Origin: Myxococcales bacterium
GTDB taxonomy: Bacteria; Myxococcota; Myxococcia; Myxococcales; JAKAPL01
DNA length: 64,000 bases
Reading direction: 5' to 3'
Assembly: GCA_021783235.1 (NCBI GenBank)
Contig: JAJXUD010000012.1
Coordinates: 16,503-80,502, forward strand
The position numbers and the translations under genes were made by a program. Shown here piece by piece: positions 3 through 38,758 of this stretch (position 1 is the first letter of the stretch; every line of letters begins with the position of its first letter). The notes beneath the pieces were generated by a model that had not been told where the DNA came from, did no database searches, and saw nothing but the letters and a program-made list of their open reading frames with translations.

Positions 3-1451
3 TCACAGACGCTCCTCGACCTCGCGAAGCTGCTCGCGCTGCCGAGCCTCCACTTCCCGGCGGCCAACTTCCACGACTACTTCCTCGGCCGCCTGAAGGC
101 GATCGTCGAGCCCGGCGCGGCCCCGGGCGGCGACGTCACCCCGGCGCAGCGGGCGGCCCTGGAGCGGGGAGTCGTCGTCTCTCCCGCGCCGCCGCCGGTC
201 CAGCCGACGCTGAAGACCGAGCGGCTGCGCCGCTTCGAGCTCTCCCCGGCGCCGCCGGCGGCGCTCGCCCTCGTCCCCTTTCCGACGGCGTTGCGCCAGG
301 ACGGGCGGAACGCCGAGCTGCCCTGGCTGCGCGAGATCCCCGACCCGACGAGCTCCATCGCCTGGAGTCCCTGGGTCGAGCTGTCGCCCGGGACGGCGGC
401 GCGGCTCGGCCTCGAGACGGGCGACGTCGTCTCGCTCTCGACCGAGCGCGGCTCCGCCGAGCTGCCCGCCTACGTCTACCCGGGGCTGCGGGACGACGTC
501 GCCGCCGTCCCGCTCGGCACGCCCGAGCTCCTGCGGATCCAGCCCGTGGCGCTCGACCCCGACTCGGGCGCCCTCGCCTTCGTCGGCGCCGGCGTGACCC
601 TTCGCAAGACCGGGCGGACGGTCGACCTGCCGCGCCTCTCGACGGTGCCCGAGCCGGAGCCCGGCGGCGTCCTGCAGTGGGTCTCGGCCGCCTCGCCAGA
701 GGCCGAGCGACCGCCGCCGGCCGAGGCCATGTACCCGCGGCCGGAGGCGAAGGAGCACCGCTGGGCCATGGTCATCGACCTCGACCGCTGCACCGGCTGC
801 CAGGCCTGCGTGGTCGCCTGCTACGCCGAGAACAACGTGCCCGTCGTGGGCCCGGAGCTCGTGACCCAGGGGCGCAGCATGGCCTGGCTGCGCATCGAGC
901 GCTACTTCGACCCGCGCGCGCCCGGCGGCCCGGGGATGGATTTCCTCCCCATGCTCTGCCAGCAGTGCGACAGCGCGCCCTGCGAGCCCGTCTGCCCCGT
1001 CTACGCGACCTACCACAACCCCGAGGGGCTCAACGCGCAGGTCTACAACCGCTGCGTCGGCACCCGCTACTGCTCGAACAACTGCCCCTACAAGGTCCGG
1101 ACGTTCAACTACCTCGACCCCTCCTTCCCCGACCCGCTGAACCTCCAGCTCAACCCCGACGTGACCGTCCGCTCCAAGGGCGTGATGGAGAAGTGCACCT
1201 TCTGCGTGCAGCGGATCCGCGCGGCCGAGAACGTGGCCCGCGACGAGCGGCGCCCGGTCCGCGACGGCGAGGTCGTCAGCGCCTGCGCCCAATCCTGCCC
1301 CTCCCGCGCCATCGTCTTCGGCGACGCGCTCGATCCCGCCTCGCGGGTCCACGCCCTGCGCAAAGACCCGCGCGGCTACCGGGCGCTCGAGGATCTGAAC
1401 ACGGGGCCCGCCGTCACCTACCTCGCGCGCGTCCGGGAGCCCGAAGCATGA
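3..1451 (+). CDS. actB: Alternative Complex III subunit ActB (molybdopterin-like plus 4Fe-4S ferredoxin domains), 5' end cut by the window edge
   Basis: The frame is open from nt 3. The product aligns with the C-terminal half of the full-length paralog at 40115-42991. Ferredoxin Cys clusters are present (CTGCQACVVAC, CQQCDSAPCEPVCP, CVGTRYCSNNCP). The stop overlaps the next start as ATGA. Confidence 0.9.
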   Translation, partial: SQTLLDLAKLLALPSLHFPAANFHDYFLGRLKAIVEPGAAPGGDVTPAQRAALERGVVVSPAPPPVQPTLKTERLRRFELSPAPPAALALVPFPTALRQDGRNAELPWLREIPDPTSSIAWSPWVELSPGTAARLGLETGDVVSLSTERGSAELPAYVYPGLRDDVAAVPLGTPELLRIQPVALDPDSGALAFVGAGVTLRKTGRTVDLPRLSTVPEPEPGGVLQWVSAASPEAERPPPAEAMYPRPEAKEHRWAMVIDLDRCTGCQACVVACYAENNVPVVGPELVTQGRSMAWLRIERYFDPRAPGGPGMDFLPMLCQQCDSAPCEPVCPVYATYHNPEGLNAQVYNRCVGTRYCSNNCPYKVRTFNYLDPSFPDPLNLQLNPDVTVRSKGVMEKCTFCVQRIRAAENVARDERRPVRDGEVVSACAQSCPSRAIVFGDALDPASRVHALRKDPRGYRALEDLNTGPAVTYLARVREPEA

Positions 1452-2785
1452 GCAGCGCCGCCCAGATCCGAAGGATCCAGGAGCTCGCCGTCGGGCTGCG
1501 CGAGCGGCTCGGCCTCGGCCACCTCCTCCTCACGCTCCTCTCGCTCGCCGCCATCGCGGTCGGCAGCTACTGCTGGGCCTGGCAGATCCAGCACGGCATG
1601 GTGGGCAGCGGCCTCATGCGGCCCGTCGCCTGGGGCGTCTACATCACCGACTTCGTCTTCTGGGTCGGCATCGCCCACTCGGGCACGCTCATCAGCGCGA
1701 TCCTCTTCCTGTTCCGCGCCCGCTTCCGGACCGCCGTCTACCGCGTCGCCGAGGCGATGACCGTCTTCGGGGTCATGACCGCCGGCCTCTTCCCCATCAT
1801 CCACCTCGGGAGGCCCTGGTTCGCCTACTGGCTCTTCCCCTACCCGAACGAGCGCCGGCTCTGGGTCAACTTCCGCTCGCCGCTCCTCTGGGACGTCTTC
1901 GCCGTCTCGACCTACCTCATCATCAGCGCGACCTTCCTCTGGGTCGGCATGGTGCCGGACGCAGCGGCGCTGCGGGACGCCTCGACCGGCTGGCGGCGCC
2001 GCTTCTACGCCGCCTTCTCGGTGGGCTGGCGCGGCAGCGCCGACGAGTGGCGCCACTTCACGCGCGCCTACCTCTTCTTCGCGGCGCTGGCGACGCCGCT
2101 CGTCATCTCGGTCCACAGCGTCGTCTCCTGGGACTTCGCCGTCTCCATGCTGCCGGGCTGGCACTCGACCCTCTTCCCTCCGTACTTCGTGGCGGGGGCC
2201 ATCTTCTCGGGCGTCGCGATGGTGATCATGCTGCTCATCCCGCTGCGGCGAGCGCTGCGGCTCGAGGAGGTCGTCGCCCACCGCCACCTCGACCTGCTCT
2301 CTCGGGTGGTGCTGCTCACGAGCCTCATCGTCACCTACTCGTACCTCCTCGAGTACGCCCTGGCGCTCCACGGCAAACCGTCCGCCGAGCGCGCCACGCT
2401 GATCTACCGGGCGACCGGCGACTACGCGGCGCTCTTCTGGACCATGATCTTCTGCAACAGCCTCGCGCCGCTGCTCCTCTTCGTCCCCCGCATCCGCCGC
2501 TCCACCATCCCGCTGCTCGCCATCGCCATCGGCGTCAACGTGGGAATGTGGCTCGAGCGCTTCGTCATCATCACGAGCTCGCTCTCCCACGACCGGCTCC
2601 CCTTCGACTGGCGCGTCTATCACCCCCGGCCCATCGAGATCGGCATCACCATCGGCTCGTTCGGCTGGTTCTTCTTCTGGTTCCTCGTCTTCGTGAAGCT
2701 CCTCCCCACCATCTCGGTGGCGGAGCTCAAGGAGGAGGCAGGCCACCCGGCCGAGCCGGCGGGGATGGGGGTGGTCCATGGCTGA
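1448..2785 (+). CDS. actC: ACIII subunit ActC (NrfD/PsrC-like polytopic quinol-interacting membrane protein)
   Basis: Multi-TM protein with the NrfD-like segment WGVYITDFVFWVGIAHSGTLISAILFLFRARFR. Highly similar to the paralog at 38748-40118. ATGA coupling to actB. Confidence 0.9.
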   Translation: MSSAAQIRRIQELAVGLRERLGLGHLLLTLLSLAAIAVGSYCWAWQIQHGMVGSGLMRPVAWGVYITDFVFWVGIAHSGTLISAILFLFRARFRTAVYRVAEAMTVFGVMTAGLFPIIHLGRPWFAYWLFPYPNERRLWVNFRSPLLWDVFAVSTYLIISATFLWVGMVPDAAALRDASTGWRRRFYAAFSVGWRGSADEWRHFTRAYLFFAALATPLVISVHSVVSWDFAVSMLPGWHSTLFPPYFVAGAIFSGVAMVIMLLIPLRRALRLEEVVAHRHLDLLSRVVLLTSLIVTYSYLLEYALALHGKPSAERATLIYRATGDYAALFWTMIFCNSLAPLLLFVPRIRRSTIPLLAIAIGVNVGMWLERFVIITSSLSHDRLPFDWRVYHPRPIEIGITIGSFGWFFFWFLVFVKLLPTISVAELKEEAGHPAEPAGMGVVHG

Positions 2786-3278
2786 CTCCGCCGTGCTGGC
2801 GCTCTTCTCGGAGCCCGACCAGGCGGCGCGGGCCATCGAGGCGCTGCGAGCGGCCGGGCTAGAGGACGTCCACGCCGCCATGCCAGCGCCGTTTCCCGAC
2901 ATCCTGCGCGCGCTCGGCCAGCCGCGCAGCCGCCTCGGCGGCGGGGTCTTCCTCGGCACCGTGGTCGGGGTCGCATCCGGCTACGCGCTCTGCGTCGCCA
3001 CCTCCCTCGCCTGGCCGCTCGTCACCGGCGGCAAGCCCATCGTCTCCTGGCCGGCCTTCACGGTGATCGGCTTCGAGGTCGCCGTCTTGATCGGCGGGCT
3101 CACCACCCACGCGCTCCTCGCCTTCACCACCGCCGCGAGCCGCCTGCGCGAGCGGGCGTCCCTGCGCGACCCGCGCTTCTCGCAGGACCGGATCGGCGTG
3201 CTCGCCGGCGGCGATCCGGCGCTGGCCGAGCGGCTCCTGCGGGAGCACGGCGCCGAGGAGGTGCGACGTGTCCCGTGA
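2778..3278 (+). CDS. actD: ACIII subunit ActD (DUF3341-like membrane protein)
   Basis: Position in the act cluster. N-terminus MADSAVLALFSEPDQAARAIEALRAAG followed by two TM segments. Paralog at 38240-38758. Confidence 0.8.
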   Translation: MADSAVLALFSEPDQAARAIEALRAAGLEDVHAAMPAPFPDILRALGQPRSRLGGGVFLGTVVGVASGYALCVATSLAWPLVTGGKPIVSWPAFTVIGFEVAVLIGGLTTHALLAFTTAASRLRERASLRDPRFSQDRIGVLAGGDPALAERLLREHGAEEVRRVP

Positions 3279-3810
3279 CCACGACCGGGCCGGCCCCTCC
3301 CGCGCGCTTCGCGCGGAGCGGCTCTCGATCGGCCTGCTCGCCTTCGCCCTCGTCGCGGTCGCCTGCCGCAACGACTGGCGCACGGACATGTGGTACCAGC
3401 CCGCGATTCAGCCCCAGACGGCGCCCCCGCGCCCGGAGCCCGAGGACTCCGTTCCCCTCGGCGCCGAGCCGCCGATCGCCGATCGGGACGACGCCGAGAG
3501 CCTAAAGGATCCGGTCCCGCGCGACGCCGCCTCGGTGCGGCGCGGCGCCGCGATCTTCCACGAGCGCTGCATCTGCTGCCACGGGGCCGAGGGGTACGGG
3601 AAAGGGCCGGTGTCGCGCTTCTTCCCGCCCGCGCCGGACCTCCGCTTCCCGGCCATCGTCCAGAGGAGCGACGGCTACCTGTTCGGCACGATCACGTTCG
3701 GGGGCCGGGCCATGCCTCCCTACGTCGACGGCCTCACCCGGAACGACCGCTGGGACATCGTCAACTTCGTCCGGACGCTCCAGGGCCGGCCGCTGGAGGG
3801 GGGCCGATGA
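3268..3810 (+). CDS. actE: ACIII subunit ActE (monoheme cytochrome c)
   Basis: Single CXXCH (CICCHGAEGYG). Conserved N-terminal C-x-NDWRTDMWYQP motif shared with the paralog at 37738-38253. GTG start. Confidence 0.8.
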   Translation: MSRDHDRAGPSRALRAERLSIGLLAFALVAVACRNDWRTDMWYQPAIQPQTAPPRPEPEDSVPLGAEPPIADRDDAESLKDPVPRDAASVRRGAAIFHERCICCHGAEGYGKGPVSRFFPPAPDLRFPAIVQRSDGYLFGTITFGGRAMPPYVDGLTRNDRWDIVNFVRTLQGRPLEGGR

Positions 3811-5378: not shown

Positions 5379-5975
5379 CTATGCGGCGCCAGCGGACGAG
5401 CCGGCCGTCGCCGGCGCCGGCGGATCGACGCGCAGACCCTTCGCGAAGTTTCCCCAGAAGCGGCTGTACTCCAGAATCACGTCGCAGCCCGAGGGGGGAA
5501 CCGCGACGTCCCAGCCGCGCCGCCGCCTCATGCTGCCAAACACGATCGCCGACTCGAGGCGGTGCTGCCCCGGCGCCACCGGAACGGTCACGTCGATTCC
5601 CGCCTTGAAGCCGCCGTCGTGGATGGCGGCGCCGTCGAGCAGCAGCAGCACCCGGACGTCGCCCAAGAAGAACCGTGGGGCGGGAAACGAGACGTGGATC
5701 TCGCCGCCGCCCGCTCTGCCCGCCGGAGAAGAGGCCCGATCGATGCTCGGGCTCGTCTGAACCGCGAGGCCGCGCGGCACGCCCAGAAAGAACAGCACGC
5801 CGCCGCCGAGGAGGAGAATCGTGCTTCACTGCCCCGGGAACCAGAGGCCGCTCAGCATGAGGCCGCATCCCGAGAGCAGGGCGCCATCCTTCCAGAGAGG
5901 CGCCTTCCTCTTGATGCTCAGGTAGACGGCGAACATCGTGGCGGCCGGCAACGCCACCGCGTGGAACCAGCTCAT
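5379..5975 (-). pseudogene. Putative 3-TM membrane protein reading frame interrupted by an in-frame TGA at 5826-5828. It may instead be two separate small genes.
   Basis: ATG at 5975 is preceded by AGAGGAGAGG. A 49-codon hydrophobic ORF ends at a TGA. The same frame then continues directly into the track ORF 5379-5798, whose N-terminus (STILLLGGGVLFFLGV) reads like a third TM segment. Confidence 0.35.
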
Positions 5976-6014: not shown

Positions 6015-6497
6015 CTACTCAAGCCGTGCCGGTGGCCGCAACCGGCCAAGCCCCCTCCGTCCTTGGGCCTCCGGCCTGTCTCGCGACGACTCGCGCGACT
6101 CCAGCGTCGGGAGGCGCCCTCCGCACGCGGAGTCGTCCTCCCGGCATGCGGAGTCGACCTCCGCGCACGCGGACTCGTCCTCCCCGCACGCGGACTCGTC
6201 CTCCCCGCACGCGGAGTCGTGCTCCCCGCATGCGGAGTCGACCTCCCCGCACGTGGAGTCGACCTCCCCGCATGCGGAGTCGACCTCCGCGCACGCGGAC
6301 TCGTGCTCCGCGCATGCGGACTCGCTCTCCCCGCACGCGGAGTCGTCCTCCCCGCATGCGGACTCGTGCTCCGCGCACGCGGAGTCGTCCTCCCCGCACG
6401 CGGACTCGACCTCCGCGCATGCGGACTCGTGCTCCGCGCGCGCGGGAACGGAGAAAAGCGGGCGGCCGATGTCAGGGAGCTCGGTCTCCTGGCCCAT
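6015..6497 (-). CDS. Candidate small acidic Cys-repeat protein (15 heptads of E-x-[DE]-S-A-C-[AG])
   Basis: ATG at 6497 begins MGQETELPDIGRPLFS, which is shared with the ORF at 13297-13569. Fifteen heptads follow. This frame terminates sensibly at 6015, whereas the plus-strand frame runs on antisense through sqr. No obvious Shine-Dalgarno sequence. Confidence 0.4.
   Translation of the reverse strand: MGQETELPDIGRPLFSVPARAEHESACAEVESACGEDDSACAEHESACGEDDSACGESESACAEHESACAEVDSACGEVDSTCGEVDSACGEHDSACGEDESACGEDESACAEVDSACREDDSACGGRLPTLESRESSRDRPEAQGRRGLGRLRPPARLE
6123..6437. repeat. Tandem repeat of 15 units of 21 bp (consensus gcaCgcggaGtcgtcctcccc), head to tail with no spacers
   Basis: Units were counted directly in the sequence. 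Several units contain the near-palindrome GCGGAGTCGACCTCCGC. The 21-bp period preserves the reading frame. Confidence 0.95.
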
Positions 6498-6634
6498 ATA
6501 CGGGAGTAGAGAGCAAGAGAAGCGAGCGGGCGCTCTCGTGGGCTTCGGGCGGTCGATGGTCGACCGGCCGGGGATCCACGGGTCCCGCGGCGCGGAGAGG
6601 AAGCGCGAGCGACCGCTCCAGACCGCGGGGTGCC
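6451..6634. repeat. Conserved ~185-bp block, copy 1 (pairs with 13523-13707)
   Basis: By-eye alignment to copy 2 shows about 15 substitutions and one 1-nt indel, with runs of 44, 26 and 22 identical nt. Both copies are in the same orientation. Confidence 0.9.
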
Positions 6635-6646
6635 GATTGGGGCCCA

Positions 6647-6667
6647 CCGCCGCCCGCGGTGCGGCGG
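6647..6667 (-). terminator. GC-rich hairpin 5 nt downstream of the sqr stop; possible intrinsic terminator without a U-tract
   Basis: CCGCCGC-ccgcggt-GCGGCGG, a 7-bp stem. There is no T-run, so this call is weak. Confidence 0.3.
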
Positions 6668-6672
6668 CCTCT

Positions 6673-7824
6673 TCAAAACCAGCGACGCAGCCAGTCCTTC
6701 TCGAAGAGCACCTTCCCCGCGTGCCACCGCCTCGCGGGTGGATGCAGCTTCACCGCGGGCAGCGGCTCGGCGTAGAAGTTTCCCTTGCCGAACCCCGCCT
6801 TGCCGTCGCCCGTCTCGACGAAGCATTCGCCCTCGCCGTCGAAGGTCGCACCCTTGCCCTTGCCGAGGATCGCCCGGGCGATGTTCGCCGCGACCACGTT
6901 CGCCTCGGCGTGGGCGAAGACCCCGGCCTTGGGCAGAGGCTTCCCCAGCTTCAGCGGGATCGAGACCGCGTCGCCGATCGCGTAGACCCCCGGGAATCGC
7001 GTCTCGAACGTCGCCCGATCGGCGGAAACCCAGCCGCTCTCCCCGCAGAGCCCCGCTTCTCGAACGACCTTGGGCGCCCGGTGGGGTGGGACGTAGGCGA
7101 GCAGGTCGTAGCCCGCCTCGGCCCCATTGGCGAAGCGAAGCTTCCGCGCGGCCGGATCGACGCTCTGGACACGATGCTCGGGGTGATAGGTGATTCCCTT
7201 GGCTTCGACCATGCCGCGCACGCCCTGGGAGACCTCGGGACCCGCCACTCCCATGGGACCCGGCTCGGCGGCGTAGAGATCGATCTTCGTCTGCTCGCGT
7301 ATCTTGCGCTTGCGGCAGTACCCCTCGACCAGCATCGCCGCCTCATAGGGCGCGGCGGGACATCTGTAGACGGGCTCCGCCGTCAGCAGAGCGATTCGAC
7401 CGCCCGAGAAGCGCTCGAGGGCCCCGTAGAGCGATCCGGCTCCGGCGAGCGTGTAGAAGTCGTGCCCCGCCTCCGAAAGCCCGGGCACGGAGGCCGCGTC
7501 GAGGTCCGCTCCCAGGGAGACGACCAGGAAGTCGCCGGCGATTGTCGTTCCGTCTACGATGACCTCTCGCCTGTCGGGCTCGATCTTCCGTATCTCGCCG
7601 CGCTTGAACTCGATCCCCTTGCGGCTCAGCCGGTCCAGCGGACGGGAGATCTTCTCGGGCGTCCGCTCGCCGACCATGAGCCAGAGGAGAGAGGGGGCGA
7701 AGAGGAAGGAAGCTTCCCGTTCGACGAGGACGACGCGGTGCTCCTTCGGCAGCTTCTTCCGAAGCGCATTGGCGGCGACGAGACCTCCGACGCCACCTCC
7801 CAGAACCAAGACGGTGCTCGCCAT
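6673..7824 (-). CDS. sqr: Sulfide:quinone oxidoreductase-like FAD-dependent pyridine nucleotide-disulfide oxidoreductase
   Basis: N-terminal Rossmann motif VLVLGGGVGGLVAA. Contains a YRCPAAPYE motif and an AIGD motif near the C-terminal third. GGAGAG lies upstream of the ATG. Confidence 0.8.
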   Translation of the reverse strand: MASTVLVLGGGVGGLVAANALRKKLPKEHRVVLVEREASFLFAPSLLWLMVGERTPEKISRPLDRLSRKGIEFKRGEIRKIEPDRREVIVDGTTIAGDFLVVSLGADLDAASVPGLSEAGHDFYTLAGAGSLYGALERFSGGRIALLTAEPVYRCPAAPYEAAMLVEGYCRKRKIREQTKIDLYAAEPGPMGVAGPEVSQGVRGMVEAKGITYHPEHRVQSVDPAARKLRFANGAEAGYDLLAYVPPHRAPKVVREAGLCGESGWVSADRATFETRFPGVYAIGDAVSIPLKLGKPLPKAGVFAHAEANVVAANIARAILGKGKGATFDGEGECFVETGDGKAGFGKGNFYAEPLPAVKLHPPARRWHAGKVLFEKDWLRRWF

Positions 7825-7832
7825 GTGCTCTC

Positions 7833-8336
7833 CTACTTTTCGACGGGAAGACCCTTGACCGCCCAGTCGGTCTGGAAGTTGTGGGGCAGGTCCAGCACCT
7901 TCACGTGGGTAAAGCCGAGCCTCTCCAGTTCGTGCAAGGCTGGACGGACGTTCGGGCAGCGCTCCCAGGGGCAGCAGCCGCAATAGATGACGATGGGTGC
8001 CTCGTGGGGCAATCCCTGCACCGCCTTCTGGAGAGCCGCCAGCCCTTCCGGCGCCGACGCCATCCCGACGTAACGGGCTCCCGGGACGTGGTTTCGGGTG
8101 AAGATGGCCTCGGGTCCGACGTGGAGGACCAGCGGCTTCGCTCCGGCGTCGCTGCCGAGCGTGCGAACCAGCTCCTCGGGCTCGATGACTTTGTCGGGAG
8201 GAGGGTCGGAAGCCAACGGAGCGGTCGGCGCAGCCTGCGCCGCGCTCTCGGGCGGAGTCGGTTTCGCGCACGCTGGCGCCACACCGACGTACGACGCGGC
8301 GATCAGAGCAAGAGAGGCGAGACGAACGCGATTCAT
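7833..8336 (-). CDS. Secreted rhodanese-like sulfurtransferase domain protein
   Basis: Signal peptide MNRVRLASLALIAASYVGVAPACA. Rhodanese-like fold with the active-site loop IVIYCGCCPWERCPN. The start could instead be 8348. Confidence 0.7.
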   Translation of the reverse strand: MNRVRLASLALIAASYVGVAPACAKPTPPESAAQAAPTAPLASDPPPDKVIEPEELVRTLGSDAGAKPLVLHVGPEAIFTRNHVPGARYVGMASAPEGLAALQKAVQGLPHEAPIVIYCGCCPWERCPNVRPALHELERLGFTHVKVLDLPHNFQTDWAVKGLPVEK

Positions 8337-8348
8337 GATCGACTCCAT

Positions 8349-9362
8349 TCAGGGATTCATCCGCATGCCACCCATGGGCATGCCGGGCATGTCGATCATC
8401 ATTCCAGCCTGCTCCTGCCGATCTGCAGAGCCTGTCATCATGGGACAGCCCATCGCAGGACCAGGCTGTGGCCGGGAGAGCAGGCGCCGCACGTAGGCGG
8501 CGAGCGCCCAGGTCTCATCCGGGCTCAGCGCCGTACCCCAGGCCGGCATGGGCGAGCCGTCCATGCCGGTGCGCAGGGTGAGGAAGATGTCTGCCATCCC
8601 GCTGCCACGCTCGAAGCGCCCCTGGGTCAAATCGGTCGGGTGCGCCGGCCGGCCAGCCTGGTCCTGCAACGTGGCGGCGGACGGTCCGTCTCCGCGTCCG
8701 GAGATCCCATGGCAAGAGGCGCAACTCATGCGCTGGTAGAGGACTCGCCCCCTCTCGACGAGCGCCGGCGTCTCGGGCGGCGCGCTGGGGACCACGACCG
8801 CCGGTCCCGGAGGCTCCTCGGCGAAGCGCTTCGAGAAGCTCTCGAGCCACGCGACCAGCGCCCATCGCTCGTGCTCAGGGAGCGCGATCCACGGGACCAT
8901 CGCCGTCCCATGAATGCCGCGCGAGATGGTCTCGAAGAGATCCTGATCGGTGGGCAACGATCCGGTGGGCGTGGAGCGCAGCTCGTAGACGCCGGTGGTG
9001 AAGTCGCGCGGTCGCGGTGAGAGACGACCAGCTTGCAGGCCCTTCCCGTCGCCCTTCTCACCGTGACAGGCGGCGCAGTGGGCGGAGTAGCTCCTCTGTC
9101 CGACGGCGAGCAGTGCGGGCTCGATCGGCGGTTCCGGGCTGCTGGGCGTGCCATCCAGGTCGGCGCCATTCATCCACGACATGAGCGCCCACATCGAACC
9201 CATCATCGAATCCATCGGGCCGGGGGGCGACTCCACCATGCCCCCCATCATGCCCGGCCCCGTCATTGCCATGGCCGACATGGGCGGCGAAAGCGCGGCC
9301 GACGCGCCGGCGGCCGTGGCGATGAGGCACCACCGGACCAGTGCCCGGTCAGGGGTCGCCAT
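8349..9362 (-). CDS. Diheme c-type cytochrome with Met-rich N- and C-terminal segments
   Basis: Two CXXCH motifs (CAACHGEKG, CASCHGISG). Met-rich stretches include MSAMAMTGPGMMGGM...MDSMMGSMWALMSWM and a C-terminal MMIDMPGMPMGGMRM. An alternative start lies at 9404. Confidence 0.8.
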   Translation of the reverse strand: MATPDRALVRWCLIATAAGASAALSPPMSAMAMTGPGMMGGMVESPPGPMDSMMGSMWALMSWMNGADLDGTPSSPEPPIEPALLAVGQRSYSAHCAACHGEKGDGKGLQAGRLSPRPRDFTTGVYELRSTPTGSLPTDQDLFETISRGIHGTAMVPWIALPEHERWALVAWLESFSKRFAEEPPGPAVVVPSAPPETPALVERGRVLYQRMSCASCHGISGRGDGPSAATLQDQAGRPAHPTDLTQGRFERGSGMADIFLTLRTGMDGSPMPAWGTALSPDETWALAAYVRRLLSRPQPGPAMGCPMMTGSADRQEQAGMMIDMPGMPMGGMRMNP

Positions 9363-9476
9363 CCCTACATGCCCCCGTCGCTTGCCGTCCCGAGCGTGAG
9401 CCATGCGACCAAAAGCGCTCCGAGCATCCCCGAACCCATGACGTAGCTCCTGGACACGTCGCCGGCCGCAGGTCTG

Positions 9477-9878
9477 CTAGGACGCGACCACCGCTCCGCG
9501 GAGCATTCCCATGCCGCAGGAGAAGGCGATCTCGCCCTGGGGCGTGAGCGTGATGTCCACGGGCTGGTTGAGGGGAAGCGCCTTCTTGATGCCCTCGTGC
9601 TCAAAGACGACCTCGGTGGCGCAAGTCTGGTCGGTCGTACGCACAAAGCGCAACGTGAGCGGTCGGCCGGCCTGGGCCTGGATGCGGCTGGGCGTGAAGC
9701 CGCCTGCGCCGACGCTGACGGTGACGATGACCGGAGCCGCGACCGCCCTCGCGCTGCCCGTCGCGGCAGGAACCATCCGCTGCGGGGACGCCGCGATGCC
9801 GGTTCGTGGCCTCTCATGGCAACCGGCGACGAGGAGCAGGGCGATGCCGACGAGGACGCCCAAGCGGAGTCTCTTCAT
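9477..9878 (-). CDS. Cupredoxin-like domain lipoprotein
   Basis: Lipobox LLVAGC. C-terminal FSCGMGMLRG plus an upstream C..E..H segment, typical of small cupredoxin_1-type metal-binding domains. Confidence 0.65.
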   Translation of the reverse strand: MKRLRLGVLVGIALLLVAGCHERPRTGIAASPQRMVPAATGSARAVAAPVIVTVSVGAGGFTPSRIQAQAGRPLTLRFVRTTDQTCATEVVFEHEGIKKALPLNQPVDITLTPQGEIAFSCGMGMLRGAVVAS

Positions 9879-9911
9879 GGGAATGGAGGTTGGCATCGAT
9901 GGAGGCTCCCG

Positions 9912-10262
9912 TCAGAAGACCAGCGCCTGCTGCGCCTCGGCGGTCCAACTGGTCCACTCGTCGAGCGTGCTCTTGTGCGTGCCCTCGATCAGCTCGGCTT
10001 CCGTGATCCCCCGCGCGTCCATGCAGGTGCCGCAGACGCCGACCACGCCGCCGTGGCGCACGACCCCCGAGAGCATCGTCTGGACGTTGTAGTAGCCCTG
10101 CGGAACTTTCTGTCCGGACTTGGCGCAAGCCGCGCCGTCGCCCACCAGGAAGACCCGAACTTCGACTCCCTCTCGCTTGGCGAGCGACCCCGCCAGGCGC
10201 AGCGCGTTGTACGCGCGCTCGCTGCCATAGGGGGCGTCGTTGATGGTGATGAGGATGTTCAT
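9912..10262 (-). CDS. DsrE/DsrF-like sulfur-relay family protein
   Basis: 116-aa product starting MNILITINDAPYGSERAYNALRLA, with VFLVGDGAACA and GVCGTCMDARG motifs. ATGA overlap with the upstream regulator gene. Confidence 0.75.
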   Translation of the reverse strand: MNILITINDAPYGSERAYNALRLAGSLAKREGVEVRVFLVGDGAACAKSGQKVPQGYYNVQTMLSGVVRHGGVVGVCGTCMDARGITEAELIEGTHKSTLDEWTSWTAEAQQALVF

Positions 10263-10927
10263 GGGGACGGCTCCTTCTCGATGGGAAGACCTGCGGCTCG
10301 CCACTCTGGCAGACCATCTTCGAGACGGCGTGCCGATCGACCACGAGCGCGCAGAATCTCGACGGCGCGAAGCGCCATGATGCAATAAGGACCGCGACAG
10401 TACGCCACGACGTTCTTTCGAGACGGCAGCTCCCCGAGGCGGCGGGCGAGTTCGGGGAGCGGGATGCTCAGCGCGCCGGGGATGTGCCCTGCTCGGTATT
10501 CGTCGGCGGGGCGCACGTCGAGGACGAGAACCGTCCCGGCTCGCGCTCGTTCCAGCAACTCCCTTCGGGGGACGGGTTCGAGCCCGTCGCGATCCGAGAA
10601 ATACCTCGCCACGATGTCGCCGACCTCGGAGAGGTGGCGCTCGCCGAGGCTGCGGAGGAGGCGGGGAAGAGCCTCGACCTCGCCGCCGGACAGGCGGTAG
10701 TGAACGAACAGCCCCTCCTTGCGCGCCTCGACGAGACGCACCTCCCGCAGGACTTGGAGGTGGTGGGAGGTGTTCGCAACCGAGAGGTCCGCTTCCTTGG
10801 CCAGCGCCTCCACGGAGCGCTCTCCTTGCGCGAGGATTTCGAGCAGCTCCAGGCGGCTCGGGCTCGAAACCGCCTTCGCGATTCTGGAGAACTGCTGGTA
10901 GAGGCGGCGCTTGGGCTTCATGATCAT
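10259..10927 (-). CDS. ArsR-family wHTH transcriptional regulator fused to a C-terminal rhodanese domain
   Basis: ArsR HTH segment (LELLEILAQGERSVEALAKEADLSVANTSHHLQVLREVRLV) followed by a rhodanese domain (LDVRPADEYRAGHIPGALSIP...VAYCRGPYC). The start is ambiguous among 10921, 10927 and 10969. Confidence 0.8.
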   Translation of the reverse strand: MIMKPKRRLYQQFSRIAKAVSSPSRLELLEILAQGERSVEALAKEADLSVANTSHHLQVLREVRLVEARKEGLFVHYRLSGGEVEALPRLLRSLGERHLSEVGDIVARYFSDRDGLEPVPRRELLERARAGTVLVLDVRPADEYRAGHIPGALSIPLPELARRLGELPSRKNVVAYCRGPYCIMALRAVEILRARGRSARRLEDGLPEWRAAGLPIEKEPSP

Positions 10928-10990
10928 TCCAACGCCGGCTTGAATAGTTCTCGGACGCCGGCAAGTCAAGTGCGACCGGCTCGGCGACCG

Positions 10991-12010
10991 TCAGCGCCCA
11001 GCGATCTGCCCGGTGGAGCTCCAGAAGTAGTAGATGGAGAAGTTGGGGTAGACCGCCACCACGTCGTTCATCCCAGCCGCGGTCAGCAAGACGCCGGCCT
11101 CACCCACGAACCGGGCGCCGAGGCGGAACTCGAAGGTGGGCTGCACCCCGAGCAGCCCGAAGCTGGGACGGCCGGCATCGACCGGATTCCCGTCTAGGCG
11201 GAAAGGGAGCCCGTGAAGGCCGATGCCCTCGATCGCGTAGGCGAGCCCTCTCCTCTCGTCGAAGACGTGCTCGAACGCGAGGCGATACTGGAAGATGTCG
11301 CCGTAGTAGTCGCCGCCCCCGCTGGAGCCGCCCGGCAGGGCATAGGAGTAGTAGAGCCCTCCGGACAGGCGAAAAGGGCGGAAGGCTTTTCGGAAGAGGA
11401 GCAGCTCGGTGATCTCCGGCTCGCCGAAGTGGGTGGCGGGGAGGCGTCCCAAGGGCGCGAAACCTCCGGGAATGGCCGGGGTCCCGATCGAGCCGAGCCA
11501 CTGGCTGGTGGGCAAGGAGACGAACACCATCTCCGTGAGCCAGAGCGGGAGCCCGCCCTGCTGGGGCGCGTGCAGCCGAAACTTGCAGTAGGGGTTCGCG
11601 TCGCCGACGCCGTTGCCAAAGGTCGCGCCCTCGTTGCCGCCGGCGGTCTGCCACCAGGAGGCTTCGGAGGCGAAGACGCCGCACTCCATCCAGGGGAGAA
11701 TGCCGGCGGCGAACTCGACGTTCGGGTTGATGGCGGCCAGGCGCTGCGCCAGCGGAAGGGCGCCCAGCGACCACGCGTCGCCGTACTGGGCGTAGGCGAC
11801 CTCGCTGAACGTGTAGAGCCTGAGGAACATCTGCCCGGGGGGCTGCAAGCCGACGCCGCTGAGGAGCTCCGGTCCCGCGATCACCGGATTCCACACCTCG
11901 GTGCTCGTGCTCGCTGCGGCGCTGGCCGAGAGCAGAAGCGCGTCGAACACGACCAGACGAAGAAGGCGGGCGCGTCCCGCTCGTCCCTGCCCCACTCCCG
12001 ATCGAATCAC
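10991..12010 (-). CDS. Putative outer-membrane beta-barrel protein
   Basis: Signal-like N-terminus, Gly/aromatic-rich alternating segments and an aromatic-rich C-terminal region. GTGA overlap with the upstream regulator stop. Confidence 0.55.
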   Translation of the reverse strand: MIRSGVGQGRAGRARLLRLVVFDALLLSASAAASTSTEVWNPVIAGPELLSGVGLQPPGQMFLRLYTFSEVAYAQYGDAWSLGALPLAQRLAAINPNVEFAAGILPWMECGVFASEASWWQTAGGNEGATFGNGVGDANPYCKFRLHAPQQGGLPLWLTEMVFVSLPTSQWLGSIGTPAIPGGFAPLGRLPATHFGEPEITELLLFRKAFRPFRLSGGLYYSYALPGGSSGGGDYYGDIFQYRLAFEHVFDERRGLAYAIEGIGLHGLPFRLDGNPVDAGRPSFGLLGVQPTFEFRLGARFVGEAGVLLTAAGMNDVVAVYPNFSIYYFWSSTGQIAGR

Positions 12011-12681
12011 CTACCGGCAACCTCGATGGGGAGCCCGCGCTCGCGCCATTCCGCGACGCCCAGGTCGAACCGAGTGGCTCGGTAGCCTCGCGCCCGCAGA
12101 GATCTGACGGCGTCCGCTGCCCAGACGCAATAAGGTCCCCGGCAGTAGGCGACGATCTCCCGAGACTTGGGAATCGCCGCAAGCTTGCGGCGCAGCTCGG
12201 GCAGCGGAATGGAGAGAGCACCCGGCAGGTGTCCCGCCTCGAACTCTTCTTTCGGGCGGACGTCGAGCAGCGTCACATCCTTCTTGCGGATCCTCGCGAC
12301 GAGCAGCTCGCGATCGACGGGCTCGAAGCCGTATTGCTCCACGAAGAAGCCCCTGACCGCCACATCCACCTCGACGAGCCGGGCCTCTGCCACCGCCCGC
12401 AACGAGAGCGCGAACGACCTCACCTCGTCGCTGGCGAGCCGGTAGGCGACATGGAGCCCCTTCTTCTCCGACTCGACGAGCCGAGCCGCGTGGAGGACGC
12501 GGAGGTGCTGCGAGGTGTTGGCGAGGCTCTGCTCCACCTCGACCGCGATGGCTTCTACCGTCCTCGGGCCCTGGGCGAGCAAGTCCAGGATTTCCAGCCG
12601 GCAGGGGCTGCTCGCCGCCTTGCCCGCCCGAGCGATCTGCCGGTAGACGGCGTTCTTGAGAGGTCGGGATTCTCGGCTCAT
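12007..12681 (-). CDS. ArsR-family regulator fused to a rhodanese domain (paralog of 10259-10927)
   Basis: Same two-domain architecture: LEILDLLAQGPRTVEAIAVEVEQSLANTSQHLRVL, then LDVRPKEEFEAGHLPGALSIP...VAYCRGPYC. Confidence 0.8.
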   Translation of the reverse strand: MSRESRPLKNAVYRQIARAGKAASSPCRLEILDLLAQGPRTVEAIAVEVEQSLANTSQHLRVLHAARLVESEKKGLHVAYRLASDEVRSFALSLRAVAEARLVEVDVAVRGFFVEQYGFEPVDRELLVARIRKKDVTLLDVRPKEEFEAGHLPGALSIPLPELRRKLAAIPKSREIVAYCRGPYCVWAADAVRSLRARGYRATRFDLGVAEWRERGLPIEVAGR

Positions 12682-12769
12682 GGCGCCACTCCTCTACTAC
12701 TCAATTGAGTGCTTGACTTATCTTAACGGCCTGGGCATTTTTCGCAAGTGGTTGGCGGAGGATCCTCCA

Positions 12770-13240
12770 ATGGATTGGAAAGCGCTGCGTTGGCTCTGGG
12801 TGCTACTTCAGATCGTGGGGGCCGCCGGATGCGCAACGGCCTCGCTTACGCGAACCTATGAGCAGGAAGCCGCCGCCGCGACGACCTACCCTCTTCCAGC
12901 GAAGAGCATCCTTCCGAGACTCGAAGAGCTGCTTTCCTCCCAAGGCTACTCCTGGACGGGCTCTCCTGCGACTCCGTGCTGGAAGACGGTCTGGCGCTGC
13001 CGGGGCAGCATCTGCGACCGGCTGATCGTCACCCTTGTCGTTTCGCCTTCGGGGACAAAGGTCGAACTCGATCGGCTCACGCAAGAGGGAGGATCGGACG
13101 ATGCCTTCGTTCATCAATCGGCCGCCGGCGACATCGAATGGGCGCTGTACGAGAAGCTGGATCCAGAAGGTGCGAGGCGCGCCGCGGCGCAGGCAAGAGA
13201 GCGCGCGGAGCGAGAGTCGCCCTGTGGGACGACTCCGTAG
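12770..13240 (+). CDS. Hypothetical lipoprotein
   Basis: Signal and lipobox MDWKALRWLWVLLQIVGAAGC. GGAGG lies about 10 nt upstream of the ATG. Confidence 0.55.
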   Translation: MDWKALRWLWVLLQIVGAAGCATASLTRTYEQEAAAATTYPLPAKSILPRLEELLSSQGYSWTGSPATPCWKTVWRCRGSICDRLIVTLVVSPSGTKVELDRLTQEGGSDDAFVHQSAAGDIEWALYEKLDPEGARRAAAQARERAERESPCGTTP

Positions 13241-13296
13241 AAAGCGGCCTCGGCAAGCAACGGCCCGAGTTCCGGCATGACTCCCAGGCGCGGTCC

Positions 13297-13569
13297 CTAA
13301 GGTTCAAGAGGAGATCGAAGGAGAGCTGGTGGCTGCCCCTGCCACCGACGGCTTTGATTCCGGCCTCGACCTCCATCCAGCATGCACGGGACGAGTTCGA
13401 CCCCGATGGACGCCGCCCCGCCAGCCGAAGAGGCTCCCATCGAGGGAACCCAGTCGACTGAAGGCCCGACTGCCCCGAACGGCAACGAGGCCTCCTTCTC
13501 CGACTCGCTCTCCGCGCGGTCAGAGAAAAGCGGGCGGCCGATGTCAGGAAGCTCGGCGCCCTGGCCCAT
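13297..13569 (-). CDS. Candidate small protein sharing its N-terminal 16 residues with the ORF at 6015-6497
   Basis: Begins MGQGAELPDIGRPLFS. Two nucleotide differences from copy 1 within these codons are synonymous (CTC/CTT, TCC/TCT). The remainder is unrelated apart from a degenerate AESESE remnant. Confidence 0.35.
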   Translation of the reverse strand: MGQGAELPDIGRPLFSDRAESESEKEASLPFGAVGPSVDWVPSMGASSAGGAASIGVELVPCMLDGGRGRNQSRRWQGQPPALLRSPLEP

Positions 13570-13707
13570 ATGCGGGAGTAGAGAGCAAGAGAAGCGAGCG
13601 GGCGCTCTCGTGGGCTCCGGGTGGTCGATGGTCGGCCGGCCGGGGATCCACGGGTCCCGTGGCCTCGGTGGGGAAGCGCAAGCGACCGATCCGGACCGCG
13701 GGGTGCC
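13523..13707. repeat. Conserved ~185-bp block, copy 2 (pairs with 6451-6634)
   Basis: See copy 1. Similarity extends about 25 nt further left (13499-13522) into one degenerate 21-bp unit (cgactcgctctccgcgcg). Confidence 0.9.
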
Positions 13708-13769
13708 TCGAAGCGACTGCTCCGCCCGGCGGCATTGGTGCCGACGGTGGGAGCGTCCGAGCGCTTGGG

Positions 13770-14468
13770 ATGGCCGATCCCCAATCGACCAGAAAGGTAA
13801 ACGTGATGGTCAACAACAACAGCAGCATCCCCGGCGGCAGCATCGCCGGGGCCGCCGGCAGCGGCAGCAACGCGGCCGGCAGCGGAAGCCAGAGCACGCC
13901 GCCGTCGGGAGCGATCCCGGCGACCGTCATGCCGAAGTACGGCTTCCGCGACGAGGTCACGACGCTGGTGGACGCCATCGAGAAGAAGATTCCCGGTGGC
14001 CCCACCTTCGTGGTGGCCGGCCAGTCGATCACCAAGCAGGGCATCGAGGATCTCCTGAACGGGATCCTCGCGCTCTTCGAGGACGTCGACTCCGGCGCCC
14101 AGGCGCTGAAGCAGAAGCGTCTGGCCCTCGAGGCTGCGCTGCCCGGGGCTCACCAGTTCGTGGTGAACCTCAAGGCGGTTCTCGTCGGGCTCTTCGGCAA
14201 GGGCAACCCTGTCCTCGAGTCCTTCGGGATCGCGCCGAAGCCTCGCAAGCTCACGACCGAGCAGAAGCTCGCTCGGAAGGAGAAGGCGAAGCTGACGCGC
14301 GAGCAGCGCGGGACCGGTGGCAAGCGCCAGTTGGCGCTGAAGAAGTTCACCGGTCAGATCGTGGTCCAGACGGCGGTCGCGCCGTCCGGTACCCCGATCG
14401 AGGGGCTCGCGCCCCCCGCCGCCGGTGGCGACACCGGCGCTTCGTCCAGCACGCCCTCGCAGAAGTAG
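13770..14468 (+). CDS. Hypothetical protein with a Gly/Ser/Asn-rich N-terminus and a Lys/Arg-rich C-terminal half
   Basis: Clean ORF followed by a strong intrinsic terminator. An alternative start at 13803/13806 is preceded by AGAAAGG. No family was recognised. Confidence 0.6.
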   Translation: MADPQSTRKVNVMVNNNSSIPGGSIAGAAGSGSNAAGSGSQSTPPSGAIPATVMPKYGFRDEVTTLVDAIEKKIPGGPTFVVAGQSITKQGIEDLLNGILALFEDVDSGAQALKQKRLALEAALPGAHQFVVNLKAVLVGLFGKGNPVLESFGIAPKPRKLTTEQKLARKEKAKLTREQRGTGGKRQLALKKFTGQIVVQTAVAPSGTPIEGLAPPAAGGDTGASSSTPSQK

Positions 14469-14567
14469 GCGGAGGCGTGAAAGCCGGCACCCCGGGGCCG
14501 TCTCCTCCCGGGGCCGTGCGAGAGCGGCCTCTCTCGCGAACGGCGACCGCGGCCGAGGACGGCGGGA

Positions 14568-14604
14568 GCCCCGGGGATCGACGAGATCCCCGGGGCTTCT
14601 TTTC
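14568..14604 (+). terminator. Rho-independent terminator
   Basis: 12-bp perfect stem GCCCCGGGGATC-gacga-GATCCCCGGGGC followed by TTCTTTTC. Confidence 0.8.
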
Positions 14605-23270: not shown

Positions 23271-24908
<1,638 letters not shown>

Positions 24909-27242: not shown

Positions 27243-28715
27243 ATGAACGCCTTGTTCGCCCGCAAGACCATCGCGCAGCTCCAGTCGGAGGCGGACGAGC
27301 AGGAGCACGGCCTGCGCCGGGCGCTCTCGGCCTTCAACCTGATGACGCTCGGGATCGGCGCCATCATCGGCGCTGGCATCTTCGTCTTGACGGGGGTGGC
27401 CGCGGCTCAGTACGCGGGCCCGGCGGTGGTGCTCTCCTTCATGCTGGGCGGAGTCGCCTGCGCCTTCGCCGGCCTCTGCTACGCCGAGATGGCGTCCACG
27501 GTGCCCATCGCCGGCAGCGCGTACACCTACTCCTACGCCACCATGGGCGAGCTCTTCGCCTGGATCATCGGCTGGGACCTCTGCCTCGAGTACGCCTTCG
27601 GCGCCACCACGGTGGCAATCGGCTGGTCCGGCTACGTGGTCAGCTTCCTCAAGAGCCTCGGGCTCGCCCTGCCCCAGGCGCTGACCCACGCGCCGGCCGA
27701 GGGGGGACTCCTGAACCTCCCGGCCGCCCTCATCGTCCTCGCCGTCACCGCGCTCCTCGTCGTGGGGGTCAAGGAGTCGGCCAACGTGACCTCGGCCATC
27801 GTGGTCGTGAAGGTGCTCGTCGTCCTCGCCTTCCTCGCCGCCTGCGCCCCCTTCATCCACGCCTCCAACTGGCATCCCTTCGTGCCGCGGAACAGCGGGG
27901 CGTTCGGCCACTACGGCTGGTCTGGGATCCTGCGGGGCGCCGGGGTGGTCTTCTTCGCCTACATCGGCTTCGACGCCGTCTCCACGGCGGCGCAGGAGGC
28001 GAAGAACCCGCAGCGGGACATGCCGATCGGCATCCTCGGGAGCCTCGTCGTCTGCACGCTGCTCTACATCGCGGTCGCGCTCGTCATCACTGGCATCGTG
28101 AGCTACACCACGCTGAACGTGCCCGATCCCATCGCGGTCGGCGTCGACGCGGTGGGCCTCACGTGGCTCGCGCCGATCATCAAGATCGGCGCCATCCTGG
28201 GGCTGACCTCGGTGATCCTGGTCATGCTGATGGGCCAGCCGCGCATCTTCTTCTCCATGGCGAACGACGGCCTCCTGCCGCCCGGGGCCGCCAAGATCCA
28301 TCCGCGCTTCCGCACGCCGTACGTGACGACGATGATCACGGGCGCGGTGGTCGCGGTGGCGGCGGCGCTCCTGCCCATCGGCGTCGTGGGCGAGCTCGTC
28401 AGCATCGGCACGCTCCTCGCCTTTGCACTCGTCTGCGCCGGCGTCCCCGTGCTCCGGCTGCTCGACCCGGACGCCAAGCGACCGTTCCGCACGCCCGCCG
28501 TCTGGCTGGTGGCGCCGCTCGGCGTGGCCTCGTCGCTGGCGCTCATGGCCGGGCTGCCGCTCGACACCTGGCTCCGGCTCGTCGTCTGGATGGCGATCGG
28601 CCTCGCCATCTACTTCTTCTACGGCCGCAAGCACAGCAAACTGCGGCTGGCCCGGCCGCCCAACGCGTCGAACGGTCCGCCGGAGACGGCGCGGGGTGTC
28701 GGAGGGATGAAGTAA
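27243..28715 (+). CDS. APC-superfamily amino acid permease (cationic amino acid transporter-like)
   Basis: [28 protein letters not shown] motif. Polytopic. Paralog of 23271-24908. Confidence 0.85.
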
Positions 28716-37741: not shown

Positions 37742-38253
37742 GGCGTGCCTCCGGTCGGCGGAACGCTCTTCTGCAGCGCCCGGATGAAGTTGACGATGTC
37801 CCAGCGGTCGTTCTCGCGCAGCCCTTCCCGCATCACGGGCATGGCCCGCCCGCCGAGGGTGATGGTCGCGAAGATGAAGCCGTCCGAGCGGCGCCGAATG
37901 GCGTCGTAGGTGACGTCCGGCGCCGGCGGAAACACCTTGGAGACCGGTCCGTTGCCGCGCCCGTCGAGCCCGTGGCAAGCCGAGCAGCGGTTCTCGAACA
38001 GAAGCTTGCCCCGCGCGACCGAGGCCGCGTCCGCCGGAATCGGGTTCTCGAGGTCAGCGAGATCGTCCCGGTCGTCCGCCGTGATGATCCCCTGGACGGG
38101 AATCGAGTCGGGCGGCGCCGGCCGCGGGTCCTGCTGTGGACGGGGCTGCGGCTGGTACCACATGTCGGTTCGCCAGTCGTTCGGCGCGCAGGCGGGAGCC
38201 GCCAGGGCTCCGCACAGGGCCCCAAGCGCCGTAAGGGCCTCAAGCCTCCGCAC
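37738..38253 (-). CDS. actE: ACIII subunit ActE (monoheme cytochrome c, cluster 2)
   Basis: CSACHGLDGRG heme motif and a conserved NDWRTDMWYQP segment. Confidence 0.85.
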   Translation of the reverse strand: MRRLEALTALGALCGALAAPACAPNDWRTDMWYQPQPRPQQDPRPAPPDSIPVQGIITADDRDDLADLENPIPADAASVARGKLLFENRCSACHGLDGRGNGPVSKVFPPAPDVTYDAIRRRSDGFIFATITLGGRAMPVMREGLRENDRWDIVNFIRALQKSVPPTGGTP

Positions 38254-38758
38254 GTTCGACCTCCTCCGCCCCTTCGCGACGCAGAATCATCTCGCAGCTC
38301 CCCTCAGCCGTTCCGGAGGCGCAAGGAACGAAGACCCCGATCCGATTCTGCGAGAACGCCGGCCGCTGCGGCATCCGCGCCCGTCGCCGCCCCACGAAGG
38401 CGGAGGTGAGCACCGCCACGAGGTTGACGAGGGCGCCAATGAGCACCATGCACTCGAAGGCGATCACCGTGTAAGGAATTGGCGAGACGATCGGCTTTCC
38501 CCCGATGACGAGCGGCCAGTCGGCCGAGGTCCAGCAGGTGAGCGCGTAGCCGCTGGCGAGGCCGACGATCGCCCCGCCGAGCGTCCACCAGCCGATCTGG
38601 CTCGGCGGATTGCCGAGCGCGGCCTCGACCTCGTGGTATGGGGCCGGCATGGCGGCGCGGATGCCTTGAACGCCGGTTCCGCGCAGCTCGCGGATGGCGC
38701 GGGCGGCAGCGCCGGGGGATTGGAACGTGGCGAGGAGTCCGGAGACATCAGTGGGCAT
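38240..38758 (-). CDS. actD: ACIII subunit ActD (cluster 2)
   Basis: Paralog of 2778-3278 (LATFQSPGAAARAIRELRGTG…, two TM segments). Confidence 0.8.
   Translation of the reverse strand: MPTDVSGLLATFQSPGAAARAIRELRGTGVQGIRAAMPAPYHEVEAALGNPPSQIGWWTLGGAIVGLASGYALTCWTSADWPLVIGGKPIVSPIPYTVIAFECMVLIGALVNLVAVLTSAFVGRRRARMPQRPAFSQNRIGVFVPCASGTAEGSCEMILRREGAEEVERAEA

Follow-up and report, generated by a model that had tools for sequence, protein, structure and literature searches.

What are two direct repeats doing on either side of a sulfur- and copper-gene operon? This is the question raised by a 64,000-nt stretch of a Myxococcales bacterium genome (assembly GCA_021783235.1, contig JAJXUD010000012.1; "the window" below), in which two near-identical segments lie about 7 kb apart in the same orientation, with the operon between them. 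A preliminary description, made from the letters of the window, had offered three options: a promoter or leader module driving a family of small minus-strand proteins, a small structured RNA, or duplication scars or recombination substrates around an acquired island. We found a conserved RNA structure on the plus strand, directly ahead of the Shine–Dalgarno sequence (SD) of one gene subfamily. As read from the alignments, each repeat carries the front part of this new conserved folded leader RNA, one copy being intact and the other broken. The reading as a whole, in which an intact and a truncated copy of a plus-strand RNA-leader cassette, with a leader that acts in cis, came into their present arrangement by recombination, we consider probable.

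The repeat pair and the gene behind it

Segment 6441–6634 matches 13513–13707 in direct orientation over ~194 nt at ~91% identity with one 1-nt indel (MAFFT, repeat search families D4 and D10, and base-by-base comparison). The offset between the copies is 7072 nt and becomes 7073 nt past the indel near 6589–6591. The repeat search found this pair as the sole match of its kind in that part of the window, and a match of this length and identity cannot be attributed to chance. The preliminary description had two ~185-bp direct copies ~7.07 kb apart, which we confirm with 16 substitutions in its coordinates (it had counted ~15), together with an identical 44-nt run, located at 6501–6544. Its view that the upstream part is non-coding also holds, as the copies differ at all three codon positions and by the indel, which rules out a reading of the upstream block as coding sequence. 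The repeat is real; its 185-bp extent did not stand. Homology with relatives runs ~100 nt past the right end of copy 2, to the start codon at 13806, and therefore the 185-bp block is only the portion that copy 2 has in common with a truncated copy. An exact 23-mer from the block had no match in the genome contigs and metagenome contigs searched, and 31 matches of a degenerate 18-mer in viral contigs were judged to be chance because the covariance model described below finds nothing in those contigs.

The start codon at 13806 belongs to a plus-strand gene for a 220-aa protein of an unnamed family, for which we found 18 homologues. The block lies upstream of every closer homologue with fetchable upstream DNA, that is, in 13 units in other assemblies (L004, L005, L006, L007 (twice), L008, L010, L011, L012, L015, L016, L018 and L021). 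Hence the block is the 5' portion of the region that precedes the genes of a plus-strand family. In all 13 units the RNA domain lies 30–40 nt ahead of the SD, on the strand of the gene. The conserved region reaches from ~330 nt upstream to the start codon, and the leader DNA is 80–89% identical where the encoded proteins are only ~58% identical. A distant homologue (P0019, 29% identity) is without the RNA, which is confined to the closer subfamily. Copy 1 is the exception among the copies, with no family gene downstream. Scans with protein patterns recovered only 3 loci in the genome contigs and 3 in the metagenome contigs. The first option of the preliminary description, a paralogous promoter or leader module, was thus right in kind and wrong in strand and genes, since the module belongs to the plus-strand 220-aa family.

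The cassette runs in the order upstream motif (probable promoter), ~290-nt leader, SD, gene of 220–260 aa and intrinsic terminator, and copy 2 is a complete cassette (13513–14603). Its parts are as follows.

13513–13585, plus strand: conserved region upstream of the RNA domain in copy 2 (alignments A5 and A6)
13542–13548, plus strand: half-motif TGTCAGG in copy 2 (6470–6476 in copy 1)
13561–13571, plus strand: half-motif CTGGCCCATAT in copy 2 (6489–6499 in copy 1)
13586–13773, plus strand: intact structured RNA domain of copy 2, ~190 nt (covariance model (CM) R1, shared minimum free energy (MFE) fold, covariation)
13592–13609 paired with 13749–13766, plus strand: closing stems P0/P1
13610–13651, plus strand: hairpin P2
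13652–13708, plus strand: hairpin P3
13726–13747, plus strand: hairpin P4
within 13586–13773, plus strand: conserved junction CUCGAAGCGA
13774–13805, plus strand: 3' hairpin of the leader, then the SD AGAAAGG (13791–13797) just ahead of the start codon
13806–14468, plus strand: gene for the 220-aa protein (MVNSN..., FGKGNPVLE, TRxLRGTGGKRQ; homologues, family alignment)
14566–14603, plus strand: intrinsic terminator hairpin (GAGCCCCGGGGATC / GATCCCCGGGGCTTC, then TTTT) at the cassette end (read from the sequence; homologous to the terminator of relatives)

The upstream motif, TGTCAGG-N12-CTGGCCCATAT, occupies 13542–13571 in copy 2 and 6470–6499 in copy 1. Most family members keep both half-motifs, and the spacer is constant in length and variable in sequence (A5, A6). 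The motif is likely a promoter or 5'-end signal of the plus-strand unit. A sigma-54 reading of TGGCCC-N- was rejected by eye, the −12 GC element being absent, and consensus promoter and terminator scans gave no match at either copy.

A conserved RNA structure ahead of the gene

All ten diverged leaders examined fold independently into one architecture (RNAfold MFE): a long P0+P1 closing stem, a long P2, a long P3, a short helix and P4. The tip of P3 varies freely in sequence, the P4 stem CGGC/GCCG is invariant, and the unpaired junction nucleotides are strongly conserved (CUCRAAGCGA and UGCCGRCGGUGGG). RNAalifold found 13–16 pairs kept through two-sided changes. In the alignment to CM R1, which was built from diverged leader sequences, 90.5% of cells are standard pairs, 14 pairs have changed on both sides and the covariation score is 0.277; a control in which each 3' partner was slid by 1–3 columns gave 42–51%, 4–8 pairs and 0.06–0.11, respectively. 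None of 500 shuffles reached the observed number of paired cells, of two-sided-change cells or the covariation score. Full copies score 119–160 bits with CM R1, copy 2 of the window (13586–13773) scores 143.8 bits, and the model found no further copy of the domain in the window. The hairpin that follows the domain is also kept through two-sided changes (alignment pairs 229–235 with 241–249; for example, GC to AU in 5 of 10), and GAAAGG before the ATG is invariant in alignment A6.

A test of strand points to plus. On the plus strand 95 cells are G-U, and many of these G-U pairs fit that strand only. When these pairs are taken on the minus strand, 74.9% of cells are standard, against the 90.5% given above, and the MFE of the window copy is −99 kcal/mol on plus and −80 on minus. 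Copies 1 and 2 differ at three places inside P2, and in each case it is only on the plus strand that pairing is preserved. A minus-strand RNA structure was rejected on the paired fraction and on its z-scores (copy 1, −2.1; copy 2, 0.0). The nested palindromes of the preliminary description are present, but most of them are arms of the plus-strand helices. Its option of a small structured RNA is backed by the covariation as far as structure is concerned; the element is ~190 nt long, lies on the plus strand and extends past the block. A search of Rfam (Rfam 15, 4227 models) gave no match in the window at the gathering threshold, and permissive scans of six exemplars, namely both window copies and four others, gave only chance matches elsewhere. 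This is a new structured RNA of ~190 nt with at least five helices, well supported and absent from Rfam.

The protein behind the leader is itself uncharacterised. A family profile search returned 2758 representative clusters (50% identity) at E<=1e-3 among 1.84 billion, and the ten clusters that we looked up are unnamed or "hypothetical protein". The family occurs in metagenome-assembled genomes (MAGs) labelled Myxococcales, Acidobacteria and 'Proteobacteria', and the viral contigs searched held no relative of the 220-aa protein. The protein has no match in Pfam, PHROGs, PADLOC or NCBIfam. Its AlphaFold2 (AF2) model has a pLDDT of 63 overall and ~78 in a core (residues 45–170) that is helical with one beta hairpin and lies between disordered Ser/Gly-rich ends; Foldseek found no PDB fold match for the model. 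The C-terminal half holds a conserved basic stretch, KPRQLT..K.ARK.KA..TR.LRGTGGKRQKA, in the family alignment.

Most likely the leader would act in cis on the expression of its own gene. We favour a mechanism in which the encoded protein would bind the leader, either in autoregulation or in an RNA–protein complex, because the RNA always accompanies one protein subfamily and because the C-terminal region of the protein is basic. Autoregulatory leaders such as the ribosomal-protein leaders in Rfam resemble the window RNA in being covarying multi-helix RNAs immediately upstream of the SD of one gene, in that RNA and protein always co-occur, and in the basic region of the protein. They differ in that the window RNA has no Rfam match and that its protein is non-ribosomal and without a known domain.

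The main rival is that the leader is a metabolite- or ion-sensing riboswitch of the 220-aa gene, with copy 1 still a truncated remnant. A multi-helix junction with the highly conserved unpaired CUCRAAGCGA and UGCCGRCGGUGGG, in a domain directly upstream of the SD, is what such a sensor could look like, and the orphan riboswitch candidates of CMfinder-type collections in Rfam (PMC5737381, PMC2864571) are of similar size and share covariation, conserved nucleotides at the junction and a place in the 5' untranslated region. Riboswitches, however, usually precede several gene families of one pathway, and this RNA precedes one uncharacterised protein subfamily only, in multicopy cassettes; in addition, it is absent from the Rfam models, and we found no terminator or clear SD-sequestering alternative. 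We therefore regard a riboswitch as unlikely and prefer a leader bound by its own protein. An RNA that constantly accompanies an uncharacterised protein offers a direct experimental route to the function of that protein.

The truncated copy, the sulfur operon and cassettes elsewhere

Why the repeats bracket an operon is a matter of copy 1 and of what adjoins it:

6121–6445, no strand assigned: tandem array of 15.5 units of 21 bp, abutting copy 1 (repeat search)
6441–6634, plus strand: copy 1, read as a truncated cassette remnant (alignments, CM R1)
6647–6667, minus strand: G+C-rich hairpin (CCGCCGC, 7-nt loop, GCGGCGG) immediately behind the stop codon of sqr at 6673–6675 (read from the sequence)
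6673–12681, minus strand: sulfur/copper operon between the copies (gene calls, Pfam matches)

Copy 1 retains the upstream motif, the 5' strands of P0/P1 (6520–6537), P2 (6538–6579) and P3 (6580–6634), and has lost the junction, P4, the 3' strands of P1/P0, the SD and the gene. Its homology ends at 6634, where relatives go on with the conserved junction, and CM R1 gives it 65.4 bits; no fragment of the 220-aa gene was found elsewhere in the window. Without its closing stems and its gene, copy 1 is therefore a remnant, by all appearances a paralogous cassette cut off in the leader after P3. The two copies differ by 8.3% in the core, and a third copy, at locus L003, is nearer to copy 2 (94%) than copy 1 is. 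The sister MAG GCA_027417995.1 has a copy 1 identical to that of the window and a copy 2 that differs by 4%, so that the divergence between the copies is older than the split between the window and the sister strain. By this comparison copy 1 is not a recent duplicate of copy 2, and the remnant has been kept unchanged in the sister strains. The "bracketing" of the operon is the result of one copy being a truncated remnant.

From 12681 down to 6673 the operon encodes two ArsR–rhodanese fusions, a 339-aa protein, DsrE, a cupredoxin, a dihaem cytochrome c, a 167-aa protein and SQR, and the interval also holds a small plus-strand open reading frame (ORF). The gene list of the preliminary description is borne out by gene calls and Pfam matches, and so is its statement that integrase and transposase genes are lacking, there being none in the Pfam content of the genes called in the first ~20 kb of the window. 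The hairpin at 6647–6667 is likely the terminator of the sulfur operon; it is 12 nt away from the point where copy 1 breaks off and is not listed by the consensus terminator scan because it has no T run. The G+C content of the interval is 0.64–0.70, against 0.71–0.76 in the flanks.

From the lower G+C content of the interval and from the operon's own terminator hairpin beside the copy 1 break, we infer a recombination joining between neighbouring cassette paralogues. A lower-G+C sqr operon would have joined one cassette by illegitimate or homology-anchored recombination, and this event would have destroyed the 3' part of that cassette and left the neighbouring paralogue intact. Recombination repeats beside islands (Campbell-type, or from homology-facilitated illegitimate recombination) offer a likeness, as here too an intact and a truncated direct copy flank a lower-G+C block. 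They are unlike the window in that it shows neither a recombinase nor an empty site, and that its repeats are 8% diverged members of a multicopy paralogous family, and therefore need not stem from a single event.

A stronger form of the recombination option would make the copies functional sites, att-like or for homologous excision, of a mobile 7-kb island. The direct repeats do bracket exactly one lower-G+C operon, an analogous layout with two units around defence-type genes exists at L007, and the cassettes sit at the edges of variable regions. However, there is no integrase, recombinase or transposase in or beside the interval, the copies are only ~91% identical with a divergence that predates the sister strain, and the end of copy 1 is a breakpoint in the RNA domain and not a common core site. 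Moreover, 23 contigs carry an identical CBS neighbour gene, and all of them that reach far enough have the interval with both copies, with no empty-site strain among the 23. The contig of L003 was tried as a hybrid "solo" copy and rejected, as its flanks are unrelated to the window and it represents a different locus. We give dedicated excision sites very little weight. Of the scar or substrate option in the preliminary description, the truncation of copy 1, the lower-G+C interval and the parallel at L007 are what survives; the age of the divergence (~8%, before the sister-strain split) and the 23 contigs speak against the rest. Nor does the unit look like an insertion sequence or a composite transposon, since it has no transposase domain and its ends carry neither inverted repeats nor target duplications.

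That the unit is a self-contained cassette shows in other assemblies, where a near-identical form recurs in at least two different contexts. Loci L005 and L006 have 1172 bp in common at 99.4% identity, with sharp boundaries and unrelated flanks; this unit starts ~355 nt upstream of the ATG and ends just past a strong intrinsic terminator, and in L005, L006, L007 and L008 the 99.4%-identical unit ends sharply on its 3' side at the terminator homologous to that of copy 2. At L007 (1–4125), two direct units that are 84% identical flank opposite-strand AAA_15/DUF4276 genes in the same topology as in the window. The cassette of L016 (509–4304) follows KwaA/KwaB (Kiwa) and an SLFN/AlbA_2 gene, and that of L018 adjoins a nucleotidyltransferase. 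At L005 (1–10672) the cassette comes after genes for a UvrD-type helicase, an N6/N4 methyltransferase and a ResIII helicase, and a DDE transposase gene is close by. Restriction-modification genes are also among the neighbours of the units. The MAG DAIDIT01 has two cassette copies. The copy at L003 was found at the locus of the protein P0001 and extends ~80 nt further on the copy-2 side; the 21-bp array stands in place of its upstream motif, and downstream follows lower-G+C sequence with a 33-codon ORF before the contig ends 148 nt later. Taken together, the cassettes appear as multicopy units at the edges of variable gene blocks, broken at different points. Being multicopy, beside defence or variable genes and variously broken, they may bear on genome plasticity in these organisms.

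A bolder interpretation is that the RNA and its basic protein form an RNA–protein system that is mobile itself or promotes the capture or exchange of neighbouring cargo. The IS110 bridge RNA and the IscB omega RNA (HEARO) belong to multicopy mobile units in which a non-coding RNA is encoded ahead of the protein that it partners. The cassette shares with these a structured RNA of ~190 nt in the 5' untranslated region and the occurrence of the unit in several near-identical copies in different contexts. It differs from them in a much shorter protein without a recombinase or nuclease domain (Pfam, NCBIfam), in the lack of a HEARO match, and in unit ends without terminal repeats or target duplications. 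Such a system strikes us as improbable. If it existed, the sqr operon and the defence genes of L007, L016 and L005 would be examples of cargo, and the broken copies (copy 1 and L003) would be footprints of activity and not accidents.

Several observations weigh against a cis-acting leader cassette rearranged by recombination. Taken by itself, the window copy has a modest MFE z-score of −1.7, the covariation rests on ~8–10 independent lineages, and helix P0, which can be aligned only in two registers, has a counted pairing of just 70%. The upstream motif has no sigma-70 consensus match in the consensus scan, so that its promoter role is putative; consensus scans also show no terminator between the RNA domain and the SD. 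The complete RNA domain at L003 (1–340; 140 bits) stands without the upstream motif and without the gene, and a gene-independent role of the RNA is thus possible. Between sister strains copy 2 differs by 4% and copy 1 is 100% conserved; such conservation is odd for a dead remnant, though the genomes are very close. Finally, the recombination history by which the sqr operon joined the cassette is inferred only.

Minus-strand frames, the 21-bp array and other features of the window

The preliminary description had also seen minus-strand ORFs that start with near-identical first 16 codons, and these starts exist, at ATG 6497 (giving MGQETELPDIGRPLFS) and at ATG 13569 (giving MGQGAELPDIGRPLFS). 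The two synonymous codon differences that it reported are there as well (CTC/CTT for Leu and TCC/TCT for Ser), and the ORFs diverge after the shared start as described, except that copy 2 holds ~1.5 of the 21-bp units and not one. It had taken the shared peptide for the N-terminal leader of a family of small proteins, and this part fails, because the reverse complement of the conserved upstream motif is ATG GGC CAG ... CCT GAC, read as M-G-Q...P-D. The ORF starts thus appear to be antisense readings of that motif and not a conserved peptide.

The corresponding alternative, a minus-strand promoter or leader that drives small proteins with an MGQ..ELPDIGRPLFS leader, for example precursors of Cys-rich repeat peptides, draws on the ORF at 6015–6497. 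This ORF has a coding-like composition, with third-position G+C of 0.93–0.97 and first-position above second-position G+C, it is called as a gene in 12 ENA contigs, and the 21-nt period of the array within it equals 7 codons. Against this, no SD precedes ATG 6497 or ATG 13569, and the ATG falls within a motif whose conservation belongs to the plus-strand unit. Other members of the family do not keep the peptide; in L012, for example, a stop follows 18 codons into the minus-strand frame, as read from A6. No assembly has a gene call for the copy-2 ORF, which is also unannotated in the sister MAG at NCBI. About half of the strain variants have a frameshift in the copy-1 ORF or no call for it. This ORF is frameshifted or missing in L004 (frameshifted), L054 and L057, its N-terminus is replaced in L003, and its single homologue is P0001, in L003. 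Variation between array units is not mainly synonymous. A minus-strand protein family is accordingly an explanation that we hold to be very improbable. The lesson is that what looks like a "conserved ORF start" can be a promoter-like motif of the opposite strand, seen in antisense.

On the minus strand the array reads as E-x-[ED]-S-A-C-[AG] heptads (acidic, Cys-containing, ESACGED-like), and each unit holds the near-palindrome CCGCRTGCGG. Array remains lie beside the other copies, ~1.5 units at ~13490–13522 next to copy 2 and ~9 units at the L003 copy. As units abut copy 1, copy 2 and the L003 copy, the array was present in the ancestor of all three. The number of units varies by strain (9.5, 14.5 and 15.5; the array is also seen at L056 11162–11465, L057 11249–11447 and L003 ~341–525), and the array may be translated, protein-binding or a plain unstable repeat. 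The Cys-repeat ORF has no match in Pfam, PHROGs, PADLOC or NCBIfam, and the same applies to the small plus-strand ORF of the interval and to a 139-aa ORF.

That 139-aa ORF and a 49-aa ORF (5379–5975, minus strand) are pieces of one predicted membrane protein of 198 aa that is intact in L004 (1571–2167), L054 and L055, and the interruption in the window is either a pseudogene or an assembly error. Within the sulfur operon, the two fusions of an ArsR-type HTH with a rhodanese (10259–10921 and 12007–12681, minus strand) are paralogues and are plausibly persulfide-sensing regulators of the sqr operon. The ~830 nt between the operon start and copy 2 (12682–13512) include a plus-strand ORF of 156–194 aa (12656/12770–13240) that is called in some assemblies only, and the third-position G+C signal there changes frame near 13400.

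Two further duplications lie at other places in the window. Segments 753–3443 and 37771–40813 form a large inverted duplication, 70–83% identical and ~35 kb apart, that covers alternative-complex-III-like genes (molybdopterin subunit, NrfD, ActD and cytochrome c), so that the window has two diverged clusters of these. Segments 23546–24326 and 27395–28109 are direct repeats of 77–79% identity, 3.8 kb apart (repeat search families D2, D3 and D6), and are probably tandem paralogous genes.

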